Assembly (NCBI GenBank): GCA_965202985.1
Contig: CBDBCF010000001.1
Location: 2,688,001 to 2,752,000 of the forward strand
Length of the DNA: 64,000 nucleotides
Direction of reading: 5' to 3'
From: Longimicrobiales bacterium
GTDB lineage: Bacteria; Gemmatimonadota; Gemmatimonadetes; Longimicrobiales; Gaopeijiaceae
Shown: in pieces, positions 33,858-63,734 of the stretch
Layout of the letters: each line of letters begins with the position of its first letter
Position numbering within the stretch: position 1 is the stretch's first letter
The notes under the pieces: generated by a model
The model's database searches: none
Told to the model about the DNA's origin: nothing
What the model saw: only the letters and a program-made list of their open reading frames with translations
Translations under genes and position numbers: made by a program

Positions 33858-35027
33858 ATGGACCGATCCCCCAACGAACGCCGACCGCCCGACGCCCCCG
33901 ACTCGTCCCAGCCGCCCGACCACGCGGCCGATGTCCCGCACCCCCAGGACGACGCGCCCGACGAGCGCGAGCGCCGTCGCCACGACCAGACGTACAAGGC
34001 CCTCTTCGCCCACGGCGCGGCGATCGAATCCTTGATCCGCGACTTCCTTGCCGTCGAGTGGCACGAGCACCTCGACCTCGAGACTGCCACGCTCGTCGCC
34101 ACCGAGACGATCTCGAAAGGCCTCAAGCGCAGGCTGGCCGACTTCGCCCTCCGCGTCTGGTTCAAGGACAGCAAGGCCTCGGTCGTCTTCCTAGTCGAAT
34201 TCCAGGCGTCCCACGATCCCGACATGGCGCTTCGCACCTTGGACTACGCCGTCGGCATGGTCGAAGCGCTGCGGGCCAACCCGACGATGCTGGACCCCGG
34301 CGACGCCGTGCCCCTGCTCCTCTCCTGCGTCCTTCACACCGGCCCGAAGCGCTGGCCGGCGGAGACGAGCTTGGCCGCCTTGACGCGCACTCCGGCGCCG
34401 CCGCCGGCCGTGGCGCGCGCCGTAGGCGGCTTCGGCACCGCGCACCGCTGCGTCGTGCTGGACTTGCAACTGGCGTCGGCGGAGGGCTTGTTGCCGGCGG
34501 ACTCGTTGCTGGGGTGGCTGGGCGCTTTGGAGCGGACGCCGCTGGGGGCGGCCTTTCCGCGCGTGCACCCTTCGTTGGCGGCGCAGCGGGGCGGGGAGGA
34601 GCATCGTACGTTCCGGGAGGCGTTCGCGAGGTGGACGGACGAGCGGATGCGGTCGGCGGGCGTGCCGGCGGAGCGGAGGGAGGTTATCGTGGAAGGGATC
34701 ATTCAACCGGGGGAGGCGTTGGAGATGGGACAGACGTACTACGAGGAGTGGGTGGAAGGCCACGAGCGCAGGGGCATGGCGAAGGGCGTGAAGAAGGGCG
34801 TGAAGCGGGGCAAGGTCCGGGGTCGCCAGGAAGGCCGGGAGGAGATGGTGCTTCGTCTGGCGTCGCGGAAGTTCGGGGCGGAGACGGCGGAGCGTCTGGA
34901 GGGTCTGGTGGGGGCGATGGGTCCCGAGCAGCTGGTGCAGGTGTTCGACGCCGTGGTGGACTGCGAGACAGGAGACGAACTGCTGGCCGAGGCGGCCAAC
35001 GGCGCCTCCGCCGCCTGCCGCCACTAG
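33858..35027 (+). CDS. Rpn family recombination-promoting nuclease / putative transposase (PD-(D/E)XK-like)
   Basis: HDQTYKALF, LDLETA, LADF..VEFQAS.DPDMALR..DY, VLHTG..RW; C-terminal GxxxG repeats and LASRKFG. Confidence 0.88.
   Translation: MDRSPNERRPPDAPDSSQPPDHAADVPHPQDDAPDERERRRHDQTYKALFAHGAAIESLIRDFLAVEWHEHLDLETATLVATETISKGLKRRLADFALRVWFKDSKASVVFLVEFQASHDPDMALRTLDYAVGMVEALRANPTMLDPGDAVPLLLSCVLHTGPKRWPAETSLAALTRTPAPPPAVARAVGGFGTAHRCVVLDLQLASAEGLLPADSLLGWLGALERTPLGAAFPRVHPSLAAQRGGEEHRTFREAFARWTDERMRSAGVPAERREVIVEGIIQPGEALEMGQTYYEEWVEGHERRGMAKGVKKGVKRGKVRGRQEGREEMVLRLASRKFGAETAERLEGLVGAMGPEQLVQVFDAVVDCETGDELLAEAANGASAACRH
34725..35027 (+). CDS. Putative internally translated small Rpn C-terminal protein (Rpn-S-like)
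   Basis: In-frame ATG 34725 with GGAGG at 34712-34716 (8-nt spacer); MGQTYYEEWVEGHERRGMAKG... Confidence 0.6.
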   Translation: MGQTYYEEWVEGHERRGMAKGVKKGVKRGKVRGRQEGREEMVLRLASRKFGAETAERLEGLVGAMGPEQLVQVFDAVVDCETGDELLAEAANGASAACRH

Positions 35028-36394: not shown

Positions 36395-39300
36395 ATGATG
36401 AGAATGAGCAGACTCAAGCTGACAGCGATGGCGGCCTTGCTCGCCATCCCCCTCGCAGCGTGTAACGAGGGGACTCCTCCTCCGCCGGAGGGCACGATCG
36501 ACGGGCAGGTGTCGATCGAAGGCCAGGGCCTGGCGGGGGTCTCGGTGTCGTTGAGCGACGGCACCACGCAGACCACCGGAACGGACGGTCGGTTCGCGTT
36601 CACCGGGGTCGAAGGCGGCACGTACACCGTCTCGATCAGCGGATTCGCGGCCGACGCCACCTTCGCATCCACGAGCCAGACGGCGACGATCGCCAGTCAA
36701 GGCCAAACGGTGACCGTGAACTTCACGGGCACGTACGTCCGCACGGCGAGCATCCTCGGCTCCGTGACGGTTGAAGGCGACGGCCAGAGCGGCATCGCCG
36801 TGCGTCTGTCGGGCGTCTCGGACGCGTCGACGACCACCGACGCCAGCGGCCGATATGCGTTCACCGGACTTCGGGCCGGCGCGTACGAAGTTGCGATCTC
36901 CGGGTTCGACGCAGACGCCGTCGGATTCTCCAGCACGTCCAAGGGCGCGACCGTCGGCGTCGGCGAGTCGCAAGTCCTCAGCTTCGACGGCACCTACCTC
37001 CGCACGGCAGGGATCGTGGGTCGCGTGTCGGTCGAGGGCGACGGCCTTGCGGGCGTGACGGTCAGCCTGAGCGGCAGCGAGAGCCGGACGGCGACCACCG
37101 ACCAGGCCGGTCAGTACGCGTTCAACGAGCTGCGCGCCGGGACCTACCAGGTGGGCATCTCCGGGTTCGACGCGGACGACTACGAGTTCTCCAGCACGTC
37201 GCAGAGCGTGACGGTGACCCTGGGCCAGACGGCGAACGTCCCGTTCGACGGGACGCTGCTCCGGACCGCCGGAATCAGCGGTCGCGTGAGCGTAGAAGGA
37301 ATGGCGCTCGCCGACGTTACGGTGATGCTCACCGGCGCGGCCACCGACACGGCGACGACGAACGCGGACGGACAGTACGCGTTCACCGGCTTGGCTGCCG
37401 GCGCCTACATGGTCGCGATCTCCGGCTACGACATGGACGCCTACGCCTTCGCGGCGGCGTCGATGTCCGTAACGCTGGCCGACGACGAGTCCAACATCAC
37501 GAACTTCATGGGCACGCACACCCGTTCGGCGAACGTGTGGGGGTACCTGTACCTCGACGCCAACGAAGACGACGAATACGCCGGCTCGGACCTTGAAGAC
37601 CTACTGGCCTTGGCGGGCGTAAAGGTGACGCTGAACGGCCCCGGGGTCGGCGACGTTGACTCGACGACGACGGACGCGCGGGGCATGTACAAGTTCGACT
37701 CGCTGGCGACGGGGAGCTATCGAGTCGCCCTCTCGGCGCCCACCGATACGATGTTCACCAACATGGGCATCGCCTTCGGCGGCCTGCAGTCGGGGGTGGT
37801 GGTGAACGTGACGCCCGGTTCGGCGAACGCGGTGCACCTGCCGTTCGACATCACGCGTCAGACGATCAAGGTCCATGCGATGATGGGAGACGGCAAGGGC
37901 AAGACCGGCAAAGCCGTAAAGGATGTCGAAATCACTCTTTACCCCACGTACCAGACCGCGACCGCCCGTACAAACGCGCTGGGAACGGCGAAGACGGACT
38001 CGACTGGCGTAGCGACGTTCACTTTCCTTCGCGCCGCAGACGTGGGTCCGGCCGGCACGAAGGACTACTTGGTGTTCGCCAGCGCCGGCAAACTGCCGCA
38101 CAACAACCTTTCGGTGTCGGGCAACAGCATCCAGGAAGTGTCGTATGCGCGTAGGGATCGCGAGAAGACGGCGGCTAACCCCGTGACGCTGCTCAACCGA
38201 GAAGTAAGGTTCCAGTTTGCGGTGAGGAGTATCGGGACGGCAGTCGGGGGCAACGCACCAATCGAGGGATGGCAGCCGGAGGTCATGGTGCGCGGTGCGA
38301 GCATCACCGTGCCGAAAACGCTGAAGACGGGCGTCACGACCTTCCGTGACCTGGACAATCCGGCTAACCTTCCGGCCACGTACTACATCGGCGCGGGAGA
38401 CGCAACGCCGGCTGCGATTACGTCGGGCGAGCGTTACACGGCGGTGCCAGAGCCAACGGATGGGGTGATGCTGGACAGCACGAAGACGAAGTTCATGTAC
38501 GTCCACGACGGGCTGCAGCTTCCGGGCACCACACTCAACCTCGGCACGCTTCGGATCAAGTACACGACCCAGACCCTGCGGGTCGCGTTCCATATGGAAA
38601 GAGACCAGCAACGGGGCTACACGCAGAGCGCCATCGGCGGCGGCGACGTCAGGCCTAACGCGTCGGTAGCAGACCTGAGCGTCACACTGGAATACACCAA
38701 CAGTGAAGGCAACACCGTCCCGTATGAGTACCCCACAACTACGCCGCGCGGCATTAGCAGGGCCAATCCGCGAAGTCCTACTGTTGCGAGTAGGGGCTTC
38801 GTGACCTTCCAAAGGCTGCCTGCGAACGTGGAGTTCGAGTTGGACTTCAGTGTTAGCGGCGCCCTCGAGGGCTACGGTGACGACCAGATCGAGACGTACA
38901 TCTTGACGGAAGGCAGAAGCGCCGAGGCCCGGAATCGCAACAACAGGGGCTCGTATTCCTTTGGTGCCTTCGGTGACGAGAGCGGTAGTTCTTCCCAGGT
39001 CTGGCTTTGCCCCTTGGCTACTGAGGGCCTGAACAACAATATCGATGCTTGCTCGACCTATGCGTTCGGTCGCACCGACGGTTCGATCACGGGCCTCGTG
39101 CATACCCTGGCTGGCGATGAGCAGGATAGCATCACAGTCACGCTGACTCCTTCTAGTCGAAACATGGGGAGCAAGACCGTGAGGACGCGTGTCACGTCGC
39201 GGGGCACTGCTGCCGATGGCGCGTACACGTTCAGCGGTCTCGGAGGTGGTACGTACGATGTTACTGTGGCTAGCACCTCCAACTGGGCGTCCCGAACGCC

Positions 39301-55663: not shown

Positions 55664-57046
55664 CTACGCCAGCCGCGCCAGCACACCCAAGAGCCGGTCC
55701 ACGTCGGCGCGGTTGTTGAACATGGCGACGGCTGCCCGCAACAGCCGGCCGTCTTCCTGAAAGGTGACCGCCACGCCGTCGTCCGCCAGCGCCTGGGCCA
55801 GCGTCTCGGGGTCCAGACCGTGGTAGAAGCTGACGATCGGCGACGGGTTGTCGGGCGGCGTGAACGGCTGCATTCCCAGCTCCGCGACGCCCTGCCGGAG
55901 CCGACCCGACAGCGTCTGCGTATGCGCGGCCACGCGCTCAATCCCGACCTGGTCCAGGAACCTCAAGGCGGCGTCCATCGCCGTGGCCGGCCCGAACGCC
56001 GCGTTGGCGTACTCGAACTTCTCGGCGTTCGACTTCAAGCGGTACCGATGCCCGGGCAGCGTCGCCTCAACCTGCCGGTGGCCATGTCGGTCGGGCGTCA
56101 TCCACTCCAAGTGCTCGCGTCGAACGTAGAACGGCGCGCAGCCGAAGTCCGCGAAGAGCCACTTGTAGCCGTTTCCGCAGGCGAAGTCGACCGCCTCGTT
56201 GTGCAAGTCCACGGGAAACGTGCCCCACGCCTGGATCGCGTCCGCGTACAGGTAGCCGCCGTGGCCGTGCACAAGCTCCGCCAAGGCGGGCAGATCGTGG
56301 CGAAACCCGTTGCGGTTCGACACCCACGCCACGCTCAGCAAGCGCGTCCGGCGGTCGGTGCGCGCGGCGAAGTCGTCCACCGTCACTACGCCGTCCGTAG
56401 CCGGCACGATGCGCAGCTCCACGCCCCGCCGCCGTTCCAGCTCGCGGTAGAGCACGAAGGTGGTCACGAAGTGCAGCTCGTCCACGACCACGTTGTCGCC
56501 CGGCTTCCAGTCCAGCGCGCCCGCGATCACGTTCTCCGCTTCGCTAGTGGCGTACAGGAACGCCGTTTCGTCCTCTTCCGCGCCGAAGATGCGCGCAAAC
56601 GACGCGCGGGCGTTCTCTTGCGCCGCCCGCCAGCTGCCCGTGTCGCGGCAGAGCGACTTCTGCTCGGCGTAGTCGCGCAGGGCGTCGCGCACGGCAACGG
56701 GGAGCGGTCCGACGGAGGCCGTGTTGAGGTACGCCAGCTCGTCGGTGACCGGAAACTGGGCCCGGACGCGCAAGGGATCGTCGTCGAGGTCCGGCGGGGC
56801 AGCGCCTGTCGCCGAAGCGCCGATCGCCGAAGCGCCGGCCGCGCCCGGAAGCCCAACCGCAGCGGGAAGCCTGACCGCAGCCGGCAGCCCCACCGCGCCC
56901 GGCAAGCTTGCCAACCCCGCTGCCGCAGTCGTCTTGAGAAAGGTGCGCCGATCGCGACGCCCGTCGTTGCGCGGGTTCGCGCGCTCGCGACGGTGCGGGT
57001 CGCGGCGCGGGGGCTTGCGTGCGTCGCTCTTGTCGTGACGGCTCAT
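55664..57046 (-). CDS. Tat-exported class V PLP-dependent aminotransferase
   Basis: DRRTFL twin-arginine signal; YLNTASVGP, ADAIQ, GYKW (PLP lysine), MFNN..DVDRL. Confidence 0.87.
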   Translation of the reverse strand: MSRHDKSDARKPPRRDPHRRERANPRNDGRRDRRTFLKTTAAAGLASLPGAVGLPAAVRLPAAVGLPGAAGASAIGASATGAAPPDLDDDPLRVRAQFPVTDELAYLNTASVGPLPVAVRDALRDYAEQKSLCRDTGSWRAAQENARASFARIFGAEEDETAFLYATSEAENVIAGALDWKPGDNVVVDELHFVTTFVLYRELERRRGVELRIVPATDGVVTVDDFAARTDRRTRLLSVAWVSNRNGFRHDLPALAELVHGHGGYLYADAIQAWGTFPVDLHNEAVDFACGNGYKWLFADFGCAPFYVRREHLEWMTPDRHGHRQVEATLPGHRYRLKSNAEKFEYANAAFGPATAMDAALRFLDQVGIERVAAHTQTLSGRLRQGVAELGMQPFTPPDNPSPIVSFYHGLDPETLAQALADDGVAVTFQEDGRLLRAAVAMFNNRADVDRLLGVLARLA

Positions 57047-58029
57047 TCGCTCCTCGTTTCTCGTTGGTTCCTCTGCAGGTCGCTCACCAGCTTCCGAAGC
57101 CGGCGACGAAGCTCGGTGGCGTCGTAGGCGGAGATCGCGCCGACCGCTCCAGCCGACGCCGGGCCTTCGACTTGCGCTTCCAGCTTACCGCCTGCCGCGT
57201 TCACCGCAACGTGCGCCGTGTGCCCTCGGTAGCGCATGGTGCCGGCGCCCTTCGCTCGGACCTTGGATTCCCAGCGGGCGAGCTTGGGGTCCGGCTTCGT
57301 CCAGGACTCGAATTCGGGTGGCAGAATGCGCATCAGCGCCTCCGGCGACATGTGGTGCACGTCATAGGTACGCTCCAGCTGATCCAAGACCCGCAACAGG
57401 TGTCTCATGCCGCCGGGGCGACCCATGAATCCCCTCTTCTGCCGCGTGCCGACCGTGTACATGCGCAAGATCAAAGGCACAAGTCCCTCCGAGTTGAAGA
57501 TCCGCTGCGATCCCATCACGCGGTCGGCGATCGCGCCCTCCCTCTCCGGCGCTTGGTCAAGCAGGAACGCCGCGTCTTCGCCGTGCGTCTCGTACAGCTG
57601 CCAGGCGGATCGCAGATAGTGGCGATGCCGGTTTCGGCGGGACTGCGGATCGCGAGGGTCGATCACGAACGTCTCGTCTCGGCGCGCCAGCCTTGGCGAC
57701 CCGTTCGCCGCGCGCACCATGTCTTCGAAATAGAAGATGCCCAGCCACGACCAGAACGACGCCCGGTCGGCGACTTGTCGCTTGATCGGCGCCAGTCTGG
57801 GCGAAAAGTACTCGCCCACTTCCCGCCGGGTCGCAAAGGACCTGCGCGCAACCTTCGGGGCGTCCCTGAACGGCCGACTGAACTCGTTGCTTGCCAGCAG
57901 CTCCTGCGGCGGCGTCAAGTTCTGCGAAGGCTTGGTCCGGACTGCGTCTAGGAATCTGCGGGCGCGGGCGATTCCCCGGGCCGTGAGTTCGCGCGCGTCG
58001 ACCGCCGTCGGCTCTCCCGACGCCGTCAC
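57043..58029 (-). CDS. Hypothetical protein, gene 4 of candidate defence cassette, with HicB-like C-terminal segment
   Basis: Coupled GTGA/ATGA overlaps; aromatic-rich core (FWSWLGIFYFEDM, RHRHYL, QLERTYDV); tail MRYRGHTAHV...TELRRRLRKLVSDL. Confidence 0.72.
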   Translation of the reverse strand: MTASGEPTAVDARELTARGIARARRFLDAVRTKPSQNLTPPQELLASNEFSRPFRDAPKVARRSFATRREVGEYFSPRLAPIKRQVADRASFWSWLGIFYFEDMVRAANGSPRLARRDETFVIDPRDPQSRRNRHRHYLRSAWQLYETHGEDAAFLLDQAPEREGAIADRVMGSQRIFNSEGLVPLILRMYTVGTRQKRGFMGRPGGMRHLLRVLDQLERTYDVHHMSPEALMRILPPEFESWTKPDPKLARWESKVRAKGAGTMRYRGHTAHVAVNAAGGKLEAQVEGPASAGAVGAISAYDATELRRRLRKLVSDLQRNQRETRSE

Positions 58030-58805
58030 CGCTTGGTCCTGCGGTACGATTCCAGCGCCCGCGCCTTCTTGCGCGCGAACGCCGCCACCACGTCCTCGAT
58101 CCATCGGTCGGCCCGCGCGATCTGATCCTCCTGCGCGTTATAGTCGACGACCGGCGGCTCCTGCTCGGGCATCAGGTCGCGCGCCAAGTCGAACCACGCC
58201 TTCCACCTGCCCTCGGCGTCGTCGGGGCGCTCGCGCTCCACCAGCAACGCCCGCTCGAGCACGGAGCGCAGCACCTGCGGCGCGACCAGCGCCCGAAAGG
58301 CGGGGTCGTTGCGCGCGGTCTCGCTCAGGCCCGGCATCCGGCTGTTGACGCGCAGCACCGCCATGTCGTCGCCCATGCCGAAGTCCAGGCGCCAGACCTC
58401 GCTCCCCAAGTCCGAGGCCACCAACGGCAAGATCGACTCCGCCGGCAGCCGGGGCGACAGCCTGTCCGCCAAGCCCAGCAGCCGGCCCGAGGCGCCCGCT
58501 TCCACGACCGCGACCCGGAACCTGCACGTCTCGGGCACGTCTCGAAGCACGCGGGCGGATTCGGGCAGGCCTCCGGGGCGGCCCACCGTGCCCCAGCTCC
58601 ACCTTTGGAAGGCGCTGCCGCGCCAAGCCTCGACCCGAAGGCGCGCGTCCGGCGGAAACCCGTAGCCGCCCAGGTCGAGCCGCAGGTCGAAGCAGTGGTC
58701 GCCGTCCGGCTCCGCGACCCTGTCGCGCTTCAGGCGCCGCAGCGTGACCACGGCGTGCGAACGCTGAATCCGCTTGCGCCCGGTGCTGTTGAAGTGACGG
58801 ATCAT
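58026..58805 (-). CDS. Hypothetical protein, gene 3 of candidate defence cassette
   Basis: ATG overlaps the upstream TGA; MIRHFNSTGRKRI, VEAW, FRVAVV, DLGSEVWRLDF, LRVNS; protein-like composition. Confidence 0.75.
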   Translation of the reverse strand: MIRHFNSTGRKRIQRSHAVVTLRRLKRDRVAEPDGDHCFDLRLDLGGYGFPPDARLRVEAWRGSAFQRWSWGTVGRPGGLPESARVLRDVPETCRFRVAVVEAGASGRLLGLADRLSPRLPAESILPLVASDLGSEVWRLDFGMGDDMAVLRVNSRMPGLSETARNDPAFRALVAPQVLRSVLERALLVERERPDDAEGRWKAWFDLARDLMPEQEPPVVDYNAQEDQIARADRWIEDVVAAFARKKARALESYRRTKR

Positions 58806-60790
58806 CGTTCGTCCTGCCCGGTCTCCGACGACCCGACCTCCGCGATCTCCACCAGCAGGTCGCGTTCGTCGAAGCCTGTGACCTTGAAGGCGAAGGCGGG
58901 GCCGTTCACGCGCACGCGAAGCTCGTTGTCCGACAGCACTTCGTAGGTGCAGTTCGCGTGCTCCACCGCCAGCCGGCCGTCGTGCAGCGAAAAGTCGGGG
59001 CAGCCCGCCCGCAGTCCGCTGGCGAAGCGAGAAAAGGCGCTGCGGGCCGTGCCCCGGGCAACGTCGTACGCCATCCGAACCGTCCACGTGCCGCCAGCTG
59101 CGTTCCCATTCGGCCCAGGGTCGAGCGTGAAGCCGCCCGACACCGGCCTTGCTCGCAGGCTCGACCGGCCGCCGGGCCCCTCTCCGTTCGATTCGCCCGA
59201 GCTGGCGTCGGGAGCTGGCGCGGGGCGCGTGGTCGTGGCCGAACTGCCCTTCTTCTTGGAGGGGAACAGGTCCGCGAAGACGTCCCGCTGCTTCTCTTCG
59301 GGCCGCACCGCCAGCTCCTGCAAGATCCGCTGCGCCGCCCGCTGCGCCTCGCGCACCCGCACGGCGGCGGCCGGCCAGCCCTTCTTCCTGAGCCGAGGCG
59401 CGGTGGGACTCCACCGCTCGTGAGCGGGACCCTCGGCGTCGCGCAGCAAGTGCCCCAGCGGGTTGCGGCTGGGCACGAACGTCAGCGCCCGCGCCCGAAA
59501 GCCCTCGATGTAGTCCATGCCCGGGATGTGCAGGTGGCCGCGCACGAAGAAGTCCTGGCCTCTGGACAGGTTGTCGTCCTTCTCCAAGTACACGCGAAAG
59601 CGCGCAAGCACGCCGCCGACCTTGGTCGTCACGCGGAACGCCAAGCGGTGGCCCCTTTCGTAGCGCGCCCGAAGCTGCTGCGCCTCCAAGGGAGAGAGCG
59701 CCGACTTGTTGCGGTTGCCGTCGGCGTCCACATGCTCCCGCTCCGTCGCAAGCCCCCACCTGGCCAGCTCGATCGCGCGCGCCAGCGCAGCAGGCTCCTC
59801 TTCGCCCTTGCTCGGCGCGCTGCCGCACTGGTGCACCTCGGCCGATATCGTCCGGGCATCCACGACCCGCGTCCGTGCGCCCGCCACCGCAATCTCCACC
59901 ACGAGGTTGCCGGCCACGATCGGCCAGAAGTACTGCGTGACCACCGCCCATGCCAGCTTGCCCGGGTCGGTCAGCTCATTCTCGGGGTGGAGCACCACTA
60001 CCGACGTGCCGCTCTCGCTGTCGCGAAGCCCGAAGTCGTCCACCGCCTGCCCCACGAACGCCCCTGCGCCGTGCCGGGAGTCCAAGGGCATCGGCAGCCA
60101 CCTCTCGTCGGGTTCTTCCGAAGCCGCCGCGAAGTAGCCGTAGTGCGAGTACTTGTTGTCCCCCATCTTGTGCAACTTGAGCATCGCCTGGCCCATGAGA
60201 AGGAGCCGCTCCTCGCCCTGGCGGCGGGTCACGCCAACGAAGGCGTTCAGCCGGGACGCGTCGGGGAAGACCCACTTGCCCAGTCCCCACGAGCCGCCGG
60301 CGTCTTGTCCCTTGGGCGAAATGCCGACGCTTCGGAACAGGCCCCAGAAGTCGTTGCCCTTGGCTTCGGGCTCGTTCGCTTCGACGTCTCCGCGCAGACC
60401 CGTCGTGCCGAAGTCCTGCACGACCAGAAACGGCATGGGCCTGTCGAAGAGCTCCTTGCGGGCCTCGAGTTCCTTCTTGCGTGGGCCGCGGGCGTTCTCT
60501 GCGTCCACGACCGCTTGAAAGTGCGGGCGAAGGCCGTCCAGGTACGCCGCCGCGCGCGGGGCGTCCAGTGCGCATTCCTTGCCGCTGACAGAGAAGCGCA
60601 CGCGCACCGGTCCGGCGTCGCGCCGTCCGTCCTTGATCCGCGCGTCCAGCGAGTTCTGCACCGACTCGCGCACGAAGCGCTTGGGCAGGTCCGTGCTGAA
60701 GAACTCGCCTTGGACCGGGTTCTCGTTGATCTCCGATGGCGACATGGCCCGGAAGCGCCAGCGGGGTGTGCGCCAGTCCCGAGCGTTCAA
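58802..60790 (-). CDS. GHKL (HATPase_c; MORC/MutL/Hsp90-like) ATPase, gene 2 of candidate defence cassette
   Basis: N-box RESVQNSLDA, G1 QDFGTTGL, G2 GGSWGLGK, G3 SGTSV; later AEGPAHERW. Confidence 0.82.
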   Translation of the reverse strand: MNARDWRTPRWRFRAMSPSEINENPVQGEFFSTDLPKRFVRESVQNSLDARIKDGRRDAGPVRVRFSVSGKECALDAPRAAAYLDGLRPHFQAVVDAENARGPRKKELEARKELFDRPMPFLVVQDFGTTGLRGDVEANEPEAKGNDFWGLFRSVGISPKGQDAGGSWGLGKWVFPDASRLNAFVGVTRRQGEERLLLMGQAMLKLHKMGDNKYSHYGYFAAASEEPDERWLPMPLDSRHGAGAFVGQAVDDFGLRDSESGTSVVVLHPENELTDPGKLAWAVVTQYFWPIVAGNLVVEIAVAGARTRVVDARTISAEVHQCGSAPSKGEEEPAALARAIELARWGLATEREHVDADGNRNKSALSPLEAQQLRARYERGHRLAFRVTTKVGGVLARFRVYLEKDDNLSRGQDFFVRGHLHIPGMDYIEGFRARALTFVPSRNPLGHLLRDAEGPAHERWSPTAPRLRKKGWPAAAVRVREAQRAAQRILQELAVRPEEKQRDVFADLFPSKKKGSSATTTRPAPAPDASSGESNGEGPGGRSSLRARPVSGGFTLDPGPNGNAAGGTWTVRMAYDVARGTARSAFSRFASGLRAGCPDFSLHDGRLAVEHANCTYEVLSDNELRVRVNGPAFAFKVTGFDERDLLVEIAEVGSSETGQDER

Positions 60791-62162
60791 GCGTCTTCGT
60801 CCTGGGCGGGAGTGCCGCCGGCGCCGTCGCCGCTCAACTCCAGGTGCGCGGTGTGGGCCGGCAGCACCGTCGTGAAGTAGGTGCGCGTCTGGTCGAACTC
60901 GAAGCGGGGCGGGGGCGACCCGTTCTCGGCCATGGCGCCGCGGATCTTGCCGAGACCCATGAACCGGCCTTCCGCCAGTCCCAGCTCCTTCAGGAACTCG
61001 CCGATGCGCCGGTTCCGCGCCGGCACGTCCGGCATCGACGCGCCCTCTTCCATATGCGCCGCCTCAACGCCGGGCACCGGTCCCGGATAGCTGCTGATCG
61101 TCATCCGGTCGTGGTAGACGTGGACCTTGATCGGGTCGGGCGCGTCCGGTTCGTAGCTCCGATGATACGCGGCGTTGGCCAGAGCCTCGCGCACGGCGAC
61201 GGCGGGCCAGCGCCTCGTGCGCCGGGCTCGGGGCGTCCCGGACCGCTTCTCGACGCGAACCTCCGACAATGCGTCCAGCAAGTCCAGGCACCGGCGAAGC
61301 TGGTCGGCCAAGCCTCCGCGAAACGTATGTTCCACCAGCAGGTCGCCCCCAGGGCCGTTCGGGAACTGGGCCACTTCGACGAGCGCGCCCCGAAACCACT
61401 CGGACGGATCGCGCGAGAAGAAGAGCAGCCCCACGTTGCGCGGCGTCTCGTGGTCGTTGGCCCGAGCCGTGATGCGCATCCGGCGATAGACCTCCCTGGC
61501 GTCCGGCTCCGTCCGCAGCTCGCTGTCCACGTCGCGCAGGAACTCCCGGACCAAGCCCTCGCGCAGGTCGTCCAGCTTTGCGCCCAGGGCGCGCCGGTCG
61601 TCCCACGGAACCCGAGCCGTCTGGCGGACCAGCGCCGGGAGCAGCCCGGCGGCCTCGGCGTCCACGGTTTCGGCCCCAGTCGGATCCAGTACCGGCGCCG
61701 GTCGCCGCGACCGCTCGGGCCGCCTGCCGCCTGCCGCCCGCCGGCGGCTTGCGACTCGCCTGTCGCCTGCCGCCCGCCCGGCGCGCGATGGGGCCTGGCC
61801 TCGCTGGCCGGCGCCCAGATCACGAGCACGTTTCGCCCGTCCACGACCTCGGGCGACACCACAGGCTGGTACACGGGATCGATGCGGTTGCACTGGCCCC
61901 GGATCCACTTCGCCGCCGCTTGCATCTCGCCGTCGGACAGCCCCACGGGCGGGAAGACGGCGCGCCCGTCCTCTTCGGCCACGCCCACCACCACGTAGCC
62001 GCCGTTCAGGTGCAGGTGGTCGTTGGCGAAGGCGCAGATCGTCCGAAGCACCTGGAACCCGGTCGTCTCGGGGCACCAGCGCGCCTTGAACTCCAGTCGC
62101 GCGGATTCGGCTCGGCGGCCGCGCAGCAGGGCTTCCACGTTGACGGGGAGGAGCGGGCTCAT
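60787..62162 (-). pseudogene. Schlafen/AlbA_2 + RecG-C-terminal-like (HATPase_c_4) protein with one frameshift at ~61675
   Basis: N-half ESARLEFK, TICAFAN, GGYVVVGVAE in one frame; C-half REALANAAYHRSY, ISSYPGP, RNRRIGEFLKELGLAE..MG in another. Junction CTG GGG CCG AAA lacks one base (YWIRLG|AETVDAE). Confidence 0.8.
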
Positions 62163-62417: not shown

Positions 62418-63734
62418 TTGCAAGCTCCCGAAACAGTGCAATCTGCCGAGCCCCTGCAGTCTGCCGAAACCTTGCAGTCTCCCGAAGCCGGCATCGGCCT
62501 GGTGGCGGACCTTCAGGGCTGGTGGAACGCCGTCGTCGATTACAGCGTGCCCAAGCTGCTGCCGACGGCGGCGATCCTGGTCGTCGCCTTTGTGGTTCGG
62601 TTCGTGGTGCTGAGGGCGCTGAACCGGATCGAGAAGCGCTGGGTGGCCCGCACCGAGACCGAGGTGGACGACAAGGTCCTCCAGTCGGTGCGCAAGGTGC
62701 TGCGTCTGTCGGTCGCGGCGTGGGTTCTGTGGTCGCTGGCCTACCAATGGTTCCCATCGGCGGTGGCCGGCGTGGCGCCTCGGCCTGCGCAGTGGATCGC
62801 CGCCGTCTGGATCGCCCTGGTCTTCGTGCCCGTCGGCAAGCTGGTGGGCGACGTGCTGGCCGTGATCAGCTCCCGCGTGGTCGAGCGCACCGACACGAGC
62901 CTGGACGAGACGGCGCTGCCCCTGCTGACCCGCTTCGTGCGGTTCATCTTGGTGGCCTTGGGCGTGGTGCTGGCGCTGGACCGGCTGGGCGTGAACATCG
63001 CGCCGTTGCTGGCCGGCGCCGGGGTCGGGGGACTGGCCGTGGGCTTGGCGGCCAAGGACTCCCTGTCGAACCTGATCGCCGGCGTGCTGCTCATCTTGGA
63101 CCGCCCGTTCAAGGTCGGCGACCGGATCGAGCTGTGGAGCGCCCCCCGGGAAACCGGCACATGGGGCGACGTGATCGAGATCGGCTTGCGCGCCACCCAC
63201 ATCCGCAACCCCGACAACCTGGTCGTGATCGTCCCCAACAACGAGATCATGCAGCGCGACATCGTGAACTACACGGCCCTGGGGACCGACATCCGGCTTC
63301 GCATTCCCTTCTCGGTGGCCTACGAGTCCGAGCTGGTGAAGGCCAAGAACATCCTTGTTGGGGTCACGGGCGAAGTGGAGGGCGTGAAGCCCGTGCCGGC
63401 GCCCGTCGTCATCGTGCGCGGCGGCGGTCCGTCCGAGGTGAACCTCGAGCTTCGCGTCTGGATTCTGGACGCCCGCCAGCGCCGCCGCATCGCCGACGAG
63501 ATCACCGAGAAGGCGTTTCTGGCGTTCGGCGACGCGGGCGTGCACATTCCCTATCCCAGGCGCGAGTTGTTCATCCGTCGCGAGGAGGAAGCGGCGCGCG
63601 ACGAAGAAGCCGCGGTGCGCGACAAGGCTGGAGCCCGCGGGAGGGCCGCTCCACGCGAAGAGGCCGCTGCACGCGAGAAAACGGCGGCGCGCGAGGAAGC
63701 AGCGGCACGCTCGGAACCGGCGGCTTCGGGCTGA
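62418..63734 (+). CDS. mscS: Small-conductance mechanosensitive channel
   Basis: AGGAGG RBS; LLAGAGVGGLAVGLAAKDSLSNLIAG, DRPFKVGDRI, GLRAT, IVPNN, IPYP. Confidence 0.93.
   Translation: MQAPETVQSAEPLQSAETLQSPEAGIGLVADLQGWWNAVVDYSVPKLLPTAAILVVAFVVRFVVLRALNRIEKRWVARTETEVDDKVLQSVRKVLRLSVAAWVLWSLAYQWFPSAVAGVAPRPAQWIAAVWIALVFVPVGKLVGDVLAVISSRVVERTDTSLDETALPLLTRFVRFILVALGVVLALDRLGVNIAPLLAGAGVGGLAVGLAAKDSLSNLIAGVLLILDRPFKVGDRIELWSAPRETGTWGDVIEIGLRATHIRNPDNLVVIVPNNEIMQRDIVNYTALGTDIRLRIPFSVAYESELVKAKNILVGVTGEVEGVKPVPAPVVIVRGGGPSEVNLELRVWILDARQRRRIADEITEKAFLAFGDAGVHIPYPRRELFIRREEEAARDEEAAVRDKAGARGRAAPREEAAAREKTAAREEAAARSEPAASG

Follow-up and report, generated by a model that had tools for sequence, protein, structure and literature searches.

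A role in restriction-modification (RM) was proposed in 2008 for the prokaryotic MORC and paraMORC ATPases (PMC2292703), and a 2026 preprint on Tiamat (10.64898/2026.09.30.754977) still calls that role a proposal. In the available excerpts of the former (Iyer, Abhiman, Aravind 2008), paraMORC2 proteins are defined by a GHKL domain and an S5 domain, with an ExxxH motif of strong conservation within the C-terminal portion of S5, and are described as lacking the MORC-specific GhXhhpXXRhl motif, sporadically distributed and linked to cytosine methylases and Vsr; that paper also names the uncharacterised domains X1–X3. PDC-M33, a candidate system of PADLOC, consists of the genes A, a GHKL protein (627-position model), B (289) and C, a DUF6339 protein (247–346); M33 is not named in the accessible main text of bioRxiv 10.1101/2024.01.29.577857. 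Herein, we analysed 64,000 nucleotides of contig CBDBCF010000001.1 (the window), which carries a cassette of four minus-strand genes at 57043..62162. A first-pass annotation had proposed these genes, encoding a Schlafen/AlbA_2 protein, a GHKL ATPase and two further proteins, as one candidate, possibly new defence system. Our results indicate that the conserved module is the trio of genes 2, 3 and 4, that this trio is homologous in order to PDC-M33A, B and C, and that its ATPase fits the paraMORC2 definition. The features of the trio are as follows (aa, amino acids; pLDDT, predicted local distance difference test).

58802..60790, minus strand: gene 2, paraMORC2-type ATPase, 662 aa from TTG (fold and motifs; PDC-M33A E 1e-18, N-terminal half only)
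59846..60745, minus strand: GHKL ATP-binding domain, gene 2 residues ~1–300 (conserved motifs, fold matches)
59297..59728, minus strand: S5/transducer domain, gene 2 residues ~340–483 (VIA matches of SMCHD1, MutL, MORC3 and TopoVI-B extend to residues 477–491)
59420..59434, minus strand: ExxxH motif of gene 2, E438-G-P-A-H442 (paraMORC2 hallmark)
58826..59170, minus strand: C-terminal beta-sandwich, gene 2 residues 526–640 (model; predicted docking site for gene 3)
58026..58805, minus strand: gene 3, putative adaptor of 259 aa (remote PDC-M33B homologue; hmmsearch of P0003, E 0.0014)
57280..58008, minus strand: gene 4 core, residues ~8–250 of a gene that starts at GTG 58029; mostly helical (model pLDDT 90)
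57043..57279, minus strand: gene 4 C-terminal tail, a small, lineage-specific alpha/beta domain (homologue comparison)

Genes 2, 3 and 4 form the conserved module

Genome loci were taken as the best 80 of 330 confirmed matches, and this sample therefore leans to close relatives. Genes 2, 3 and 4 were adjacent in 65 of the 80 loci (64 found by script, and L018, which has an extended gene 4), confirming that they travel together across phyla, ten of which are represented among the 80 by record titles. The other loci comprised two with genes 2 and 3 only, seven planctomycete loci with the ATPase only and six that were cut by contig ends. The conserved unit is thus three genes rather than the four first proposed. 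The family counted 1,236 clusters at E ≤ 1e-30, and gene 3 was present in 6/301 genomes of the phylum searched, a patchy distribution that speaks against a housekeeping cassette. All three same-genus genomes carried the trio, each with different neighbours. Given these differing neighbours and the patchy distribution in the phylum, the unit is best described as a mobile trio. Viral contigs yielded no loci with gene 2 alone as the query and three with the gene 2 alignment, giving no sign of a phage-gene origin, and a metagenome scan with an M33-type ATPase as the query found nothing.

Up to three divergent trios were found in one genome, and L022 held two tandem window-clade trios with three copies of gene 4. 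The lone ATPases of the planctomycetes (L069, L070, L071, L075, L076, L079, and L090) stood among housekeeping genes and were possibly domesticated.

Kinship with PDC-M33

Genes 2–4 had no match in Pfam, NCBIfam or PHROGs, and gene 2 had none to HATPase_c_3. The earlier statement that genes 3 and 4 match no nameable family is corrected by profile searches, which revealed remote homology of gene 3 to PDC-M33B and of gene 4 to DUF6339/PDC-M33C (gene 4 core, hmmsearch of P0246, E 1.6e-7). The PADLOC model of PDC-M33A matched 19 of 19 window-clade ATPases, over the N-terminal half only (E 1e-11 to 7e-25), and matched a closer member with E 3e-61. The PDC-M33B and PDC-M33C models matched 0/21 and 0/32 window-clade proteins, respectively; defence inventories probably undercount the trio, because these two models miss a large clade. 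The Pfam model of DUF6339 likewise recognised none of 120 listed gene 4 homologues, and one gene 4 homologue had a precomputed PF19866 match.

For a more sensitive comparison, M33 profiles were built from plasmid trios, the distant trio of the same-genus genome G003 and related loci. With hhalign, gene 2 aligned to M33A with a probability (P) of 99.95, gene 4 to M33C with P 92.2 (E 5.9e-7), and gene 3 to M33B with P 84.7 (E 6.6e-6, 36 sequences); the match of gene 3 to a first, smaller M33B profile of 10 sequences was weak (P 3.8, E 0.011). Crossed comparisons of the A, B and C profiles, used as controls, gave E 0.2–0.35 or no match. The distant trio of G003 matched M33A, M33B and M33C/DUF6339 in order, and, of ten plasmid regions, the nine annotated ones had the same three-gene pattern; in seven, the annotation calls the third gene DUF6339. 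A quickly built tree of 68 ATPases, in which long branches were flagged, had the 32 window-clade rows as one side of a long branch with support of 99.

The trio resembles PDC-M33 in having three genes in the order A-B-C, of similar sizes and all homologous by profile, and in its Dcm, Vsr and RM neighbourhoods. It differs in that the window clade goes undetected by PADLOC's B and C models and in the extra tail of gene 4. On these sequence comparisons, we place the trio beside PDC-M33 as a divergent sister rather than within it, so the view of a system that lacks named kin is not supported. No literature on PDC-M33 or DUF6339 by name was found, most subscription papers being outside reach, and none of the papers found on GHKL/MORC anti-phage systems concerned the trio by title or the start of the abstract.

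Mza-type/MORC RM operons also place a GHKL ATPase in RM-like settings. However, Z1, DUF4420, AIPR and methylase genes were absent among the window cassette and its flanking genes in Pfam and PADLOC scans, in agreement with the first-pass annotation, which had noted the lack of Z1, AIPR and methylase genes. Z1 and DUF4420 genes precede the trios of another subclade (L013 and L169).

Gene 2 is a GHKL and S5 ATPase

Residues of gene 2 are counted from ATG 60745; the TTG start is supported because a W-x-F motif upstream of this ATG is conserved. Residues R26, Q30, N31, D34, G116, G151, G154, and G156 were present in 128/128 homologue rows, and E27, D111, and K157 in 127/128, so that the GHKL motifs read by eye at the outset proved to be near invariant. 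The AlphaFold2 model (pLDDT 81) gave Foldseek matches to TopoVI-B, Hsp90, and ParE. Over residues ~5–490, VIA-align matched the model to SMCHD1 (Z 15.6, 311 aligned, root-mean-square deviation 3.8), GRP94, TopoVI-B, MutL (Z 13.6), and MORC3 (Z 13.3). Gene 2 had been thought to lack a partner domain of the MutL or gyrase type, but the S5/transducer domain common to MutL, gyrase and MORC is present, and E438 and H442 of its ExxxH motif were found in all 128 rows. A linker separates S5 from the beta-sandwich, which ends in a conserved GFD-RD motif and had weak matches to generic beta-sandwich structures (Z up to 6.2).

Gene 2 therefore has three paraMORC2 features given in the accessible text of PMC2292703, namely a GHKL domain with ATP motifs, an S5 domain C-terminal to it and ExxxH. 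It fits the paraMORC2 type as set by the published definition.

Genes 3 and 4 and the predicted complex

A complex was modelled from gene 2 (residues 330–640), the gene 4 core and gene 3, together with three controls. Gene 3 scored 0.65, compared with 0.18 for the best control, the contacts agreed between runs in at least 73%, and the partner pLDDT was 82. The score mark was reached by 116/157 solved and 2/215 mismatched pairs, which is a rough guide for a three-chain job with custom alignments. In a PDB sequence search with five alignments, the best E was 0.016; since this brought up no relative of solved structure, it is less likely that the model recalls a solved complex.

The predicted contacts place gene 3 residues 1–8 on gene 2 residues 625–635, and gene 4 residues 220–231 on gene 3 residues 99–109. 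This predicted interface falls on the most conserved residues, namely R3, N6, and T8 of gene 3, G624, D626, R628, and D629 of gene 2, and D223 of gene 4. The invariant D223 can be accounted for as an interface residue, since it maps to the contact with gene 3. The model thus supports a predicted arrangement in which gene 3 bridges the ATPase and the helical gene 4, and backs the ATPase and adaptor organisation that had been suggested for this locus.

Among the listed homologues (120), 62 share a tail related to that of gene 4, the rest having different tails or none. Other N- or C-terminal additions also occurred among the listed homologues, one of them being DUF4268, and gene 4 was found in tandem copies at several Chloroflexota loci. 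The tail had only weak fold matches (HicB-N, AcrIF, and dsRBD-like, Z up to 8.1). Foldseek searches of PDB and BFVD with gene 4 returned nothing at E ≤ 0.001, and the tail dominated the VIA listing, by which the core was barely probed. In the ESM Atlas, gene 3 matched unnamed clusters only and the gene 4 core had no usable match. When the columns conserved in genes 3 and 4 were inspected by eye, no PD-(D/E)xK, HNH or HEPN pattern was seen.

Methylases and other defence genes near the trio

Neighbouring genes were predicted with our own simple codon-model caller, and their boundaries are approximate. Genes for 5-methylcytosine (5mC) methylases made up 9/274 of the genes at a distance of one or two genes from the trio, 1/232 at three or four, and 0/435 at five or more; the profile used was built from these same loci, and Pfam confirmed the matches. 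This clustering of methylases beside the trio is consistent with the defence setting that had been anticipated. Any DNA methylase within two genes was counted by hand in 14/77 scanned loci; L014, L031, and L036 had no scanned neighbours, and three very long genes were omitted from the scan. Other neighbours of trios included McrBC, GmrSD, type I and III RM, PLD/SNF2 helicases, BsaWI, TIR, PIN, and Fic. For the M33-type plasmid trios, dcm lay within the stretch shown in 6/9 annotated records, and the remaining three trios adjoined AbiGII, MmeI/type I genes or AIPR. This genome has at least five Dcm-like genes, all away from the window, whose trio has none beside it.

A Vsr gene stood beside Dcm and the trio at L068, L074, L080, L083, L085, and L168. 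At L080:2364-9900, L083:6054-13434, and L085:4560-13425, one apparent operon comprised Vsr, a helix-turn-helix gene, Dcm, a second GHKL protein (HATPase_c_3) and then the trio; the second GHKL protein of L085 had an additional HATPase_c domain. A conserved gene of ~210–230 aa without a Pfam match lay directly upstream of the ATPase at L033:9272-9889, L072:9188-9880, L082:9265-9918, and L088:1967-2284 (called shorter). In the M33-type plasmid trios, a gene of ~76 aa was often found in that position.

A sister clade beside sulfur-modification-like genes

This genome encodes two more M33A-like ATPases, each heading a B-C pair. In the quick tree, they belong to a sister clade of 20 rows (support 100), whose members are from this genome, related genomes and four metagenome contigs. 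In 19/19 sister-clade loci, which cover a small range of lineages, a PAPS-reductase-like gene was upstream of the trio. It had weak matches to SspD, BrxP, and DndC, and PAPS_reduct matched one of three tested genes with E 0.0045. A desulfurase of the DndA/SspA type lay between this gene and the trio in 10/19 loci, corresponding to one subclade of 10 rows. Downstream of the trio, a DUF262 protein was encoded in 5/19 loci and PbeA in 4/19. None of these four genes (PAPS-reductase-like, desulfurase, DUF262, PbeA) was found at the 80 window-clade loci.

At G000:C1 ~1,953,600–1,959,900 (L105:6666-12876, minus strand), the PAPS-like gene, the desulfurase gene (E 2e-137), the GHKL ATPase gene, B and C follow each other, and a DUF262 gene lies a few kb downstream, past insertion sequence remnants; this locus is a candidate phosphorothioation-like system based on a paraMORC2 trio. 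At G000:C1 ~1,751,600–1,756,500 (L104:6630-11508, minus strand), a sister trio has a PAPS-like gene and no desulfurase, with Fic-like and methylase-like genes downstream. L108:1573-12961, L127, L128, and L129 have a PAPS-like gene, a desulfurase gene and the trio, followed by the PbeA helicase, and L108 adds a PbeC/DndD-like ATPase. Since such an ATPase is also present in Pbe-linked loci, the scanning core there may be something other than the trio. L109:1328-13261 (G295) holds two tandem trios, each with its own PAPS-like gene. In a different branch, the DUF6339/M33C subunit encoded at L011:5758-7404 (G003) carries a fused SspD-like domain (E 5e-17), which joins the trio to the PAPS-reductase fold.

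The sister clade resembles Dnd and Ssp systems in combining a PAPS-reductase-like gene, a DndA/SspA desulfurase and an ATPase core with a downstream DUF262 or PbeA gene, but the ATPase beside the sulfur genes belongs to a GHKL trio, not to DndD/E or SspB/C. According to the available text of PMC10853773, the DndDE/CxC core swaps between phosphorothioate and cytosine-methylase partners, a pattern that the trio shares; GHKL does not occur in the portion of its main text that was accessible. No literature linking phosphorothioation with GHKL was found, most subscription papers being outside reach. Tentatively, the trio may be a general ATP-driven DNA-targeting core with swapped modifying partners, in which case the sister clade would be a phosphorothioation or sulfur-modification system built on a GHKL clamp. 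Under this possible but doubtful scheme, some branches would use 5mC methylases, the window copy partners in trans, and the sister clade the PAPS-like protein, the desulfurase and DUF262 or PbeA. The strict link to sulfur-modification-like genes hints at another possible way of modifying the DNA backbone and, if true, the sulfur-modification reading would for the first time give biochemical access to a prokaryotic MORC-like complex.

Gene 1 and its link to the trio

Gene 1 was found to be interrupted in the window, as follows.

60787..62162, minus strand: gene 1, AlbA_2 and HATPase_c_4, frameshifted (PF04326, E 1.4e-11, in one frame; PF13749, E 4.2e-12, in another)
61672..61674, minus strand: 1-bp deletion that splits gene 1 (X1 contig compared with X3 and X6 contigs)

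Four sequencing runs (X1, X3, X6, and X7) were aligned to the stretch to check the allele. The contig of X1, the run that contained all sampled words, crossed the break with 0 gaps and identical sequence, whereas the X3 and X6 contigs had one more base after 61673 and an intact gene 1; X7 did not reach the site. The intact alleles were on near-identical contigs of two other samples from another study. As X1 lacks the base while X3 and X6 have it, the break is a strain-level allele. A sequencing error was considered as the cause of the frameshift and rejected on the gap-free X1 contig, although X1 may itself be the sample from which the sequence came.

In the accessible text of PMC13056530, Ex4(E/D)xK is the catalytic motif of prokaryotic Schlafen proteins, and Schlafen-HisKinase fusions are their commonest architecture (34%). 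Gene 1 resembles these fusions in having an AlbA_2 domain with an Ex4ExK motif (E19, E24, and K26 are present) fused to HATPase_c_4, which we infer to correspond to the HisKinase class of that text; unlike them, it is frameshifted in this strain, although intact in X3 and X6. A relative of the AlbA_2 gene was present in 3/80 trio loci and in the same-operon position in 1/80; among the three same-genus genomes, gene 1 preceded the trio in one (G003), again with a 4-bp overlap with gene 2. The 1/80 and 1/3 counts overlap. The proposal that the Schlafen protein is the cognate effector is not supported by these counts and by the broken gene, and gene 1 is best seen as an independent defence-type passenger that came to lie upstream and whose copy in this strain is broken.

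AlbA_2 genes recur near trios at L016, L032, L159, and L163. An in-frame paralogue of gene 1 lies at G000:C2:171431-172693 (64% and 55% identity over two parts), and no trio genes were found on contig C2. The same metagenomes hold many related AlbA_2 sequences.

Proposed role of the trio

With moderate confidence, we consider that the trio probably forms one complex of the paraMORC2/PDC-M33 branch and acts as an ATP-driven DNA-handling accessory of modification-based (RM-type) defence, serving separately encoded enzymes. In the model, gene 3 would dock through its conserved N-terminal strand on the beta-sandwich at the C-terminus of gene 2 and would hold the helical gene 4, which may contact DNA or read a mark. 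In GHKL ATPases, ATP binding closes an N-terminal dimer clamp; by analogy, gene 2 would close such a clamp and loop or scan DNA. A looping or scanning clamp model for this ATPase class also appears in the available part of PMC2292703. The complex would deliver a modifying or cutting enzyme, placed elsewhere because genes 2–4 showed no nuclease motif; here, that partner would work in trans. The GHKL and S5 fold with its ATP motifs, ExxxH, the fixed gene order, the homology to M33A, B and C, the mobility of the trio and the clustering of 5mC methylases beside it speak for this role, as does the strict PAPS-like link of the sister clade. Several observations weigh against such an accessory role. 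No methylase lay within two genes in 63/77 scanned loci, as at the window, and several of the Dcm-linked loci are related Bacteroidota and not independent. A complete EcoRII system was already present in 2/10 Dcm-linked loci, so that co-location in a hotspot fits as well as partnership. In addition, the ATPase stands alone in 7/80 loci (planctomycetes) and gene 4 was not found in two more, and the accessible text of bioRxiv 10.1101/2024.01.29.577857 describes its 145 PDC systems as untested.

The same scarcity of adjacent methylases, together with the varied neighbours, would suit a self-sufficient anti-phage system composed of a sensor ATPase, an adaptor and a cryptic effector in gene 4 or at ExxxH, with methylases nearby through shared hotspots. 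PDC candidates are defined as cassettes embedded in other systems (bioRxiv 10.1101/2024.01.29.577857, as far as accessible), gene 4 in sponge-associated lineages acquires varying tails and occurs in tandem, as is frequent in sensors, and the invariant ExxxH could be catalytic. However, neither gene 3 nor gene 4 shows a nuclease or toxin motif in its conserved columns, D223 of gene 4 is taken up by the gene 3 interface, and the 19/19 coupling of the sister clade to PAPS-like genes is too strict for a hotspot effect; we therefore regard self-sufficiency as rather unlikely. A maintenance or repair accessory on mobile methylase islands, such as a helper similar to MutL in the repair of deaminated 5mC by Vsr, appears improbable. 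The GHKL and S5 fold is close to that of MutL, Vsr is beside Dcm and the trio in the six loci named above, and among the genes scanned at 8/10 Dcm-linked loci Pfam identified no cognate restriction enzyme. But Vsr normally travels with Dcm, trios also occur with adenine/N4 methylases and with sulfur-modification-like genes, where Vsr repair is irrelevant, and a genome can hold three divergent trios. Most improbable is a four-gene system in which the GHKL module switches on a Schlafen/AlbA_2 RNase effector. It would supply the effector that the trio does not obviously have, and the overlap of genes 1 and 2 here and in G003, the catalytic motif of gene 1, its intact alleles and the AlbA_2 genes near four other trios all agree with it; yet the rarity of gene 1 in the operon, its break beside intact genes 2–4, its architecture, the commonest among prokaryotic Schlafen proteins in the accessible text of PMC13056530, and a close paralogue on C2 with no trio gene found there argue for an independent gene.

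The complex model singles out specific residues for mutation, and the window trio, having no adjacent methylase, is a setting that can separate a self-sufficient system from an accessory.

Locus layout and flanking genes

The cassette lies between mscS (Pfam MS_channel), on the plus strand, and a gene with an Aminotran_5 match, as first described.

55664..57046, minus strand: class-V aminotransferase gene with a TAT (twin-arginine translocation) signal; flank, its ATGA overlapping the gene 4 stop; outside the module
62436..63734, plus strand: mscS, divergent flank, outside the module

The 4-bp stop/start overlaps that couple the four minus-strand genes were verified at all three positions (TTGA 60787-60790, ATGA 58802-58805, and GTGA 58026-58029). 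A fourth overlap, ATGA 57043-57046, joins the gene 4 stop to the aminotransferase gene, so overlaps alone do not mark the edge of the system here. The GC content and the GC content at third codon positions of the cassette matched those of the flanking housekeeping genes, and no island signal was found in these two measures. The nearest named homologues were from Gemmatimonadota. Several of the sequencing runs that contain the stretch were labelled sponge metagenome, and no RNA runs were found among them. In G001 and G003, mscS and truA were far apart, and in G002 the query used did not retrieve truA.

At window position 56809, X3 and X6 had a 15-bp deletion in a low-complexity repeat of the aminotransferase N-terminus. 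The gene at window 33858–35027 resembles, by eye, what we take to be the YhgA-like transposase family that adjoins another trio. Between window positions 38000 and 46000, the GC content was lower (0.59–0.68), and the genes there, which by eye we presume to be asparagine-synthetase-like and methyltransferase genes, may form a surface-polysaccharide island.

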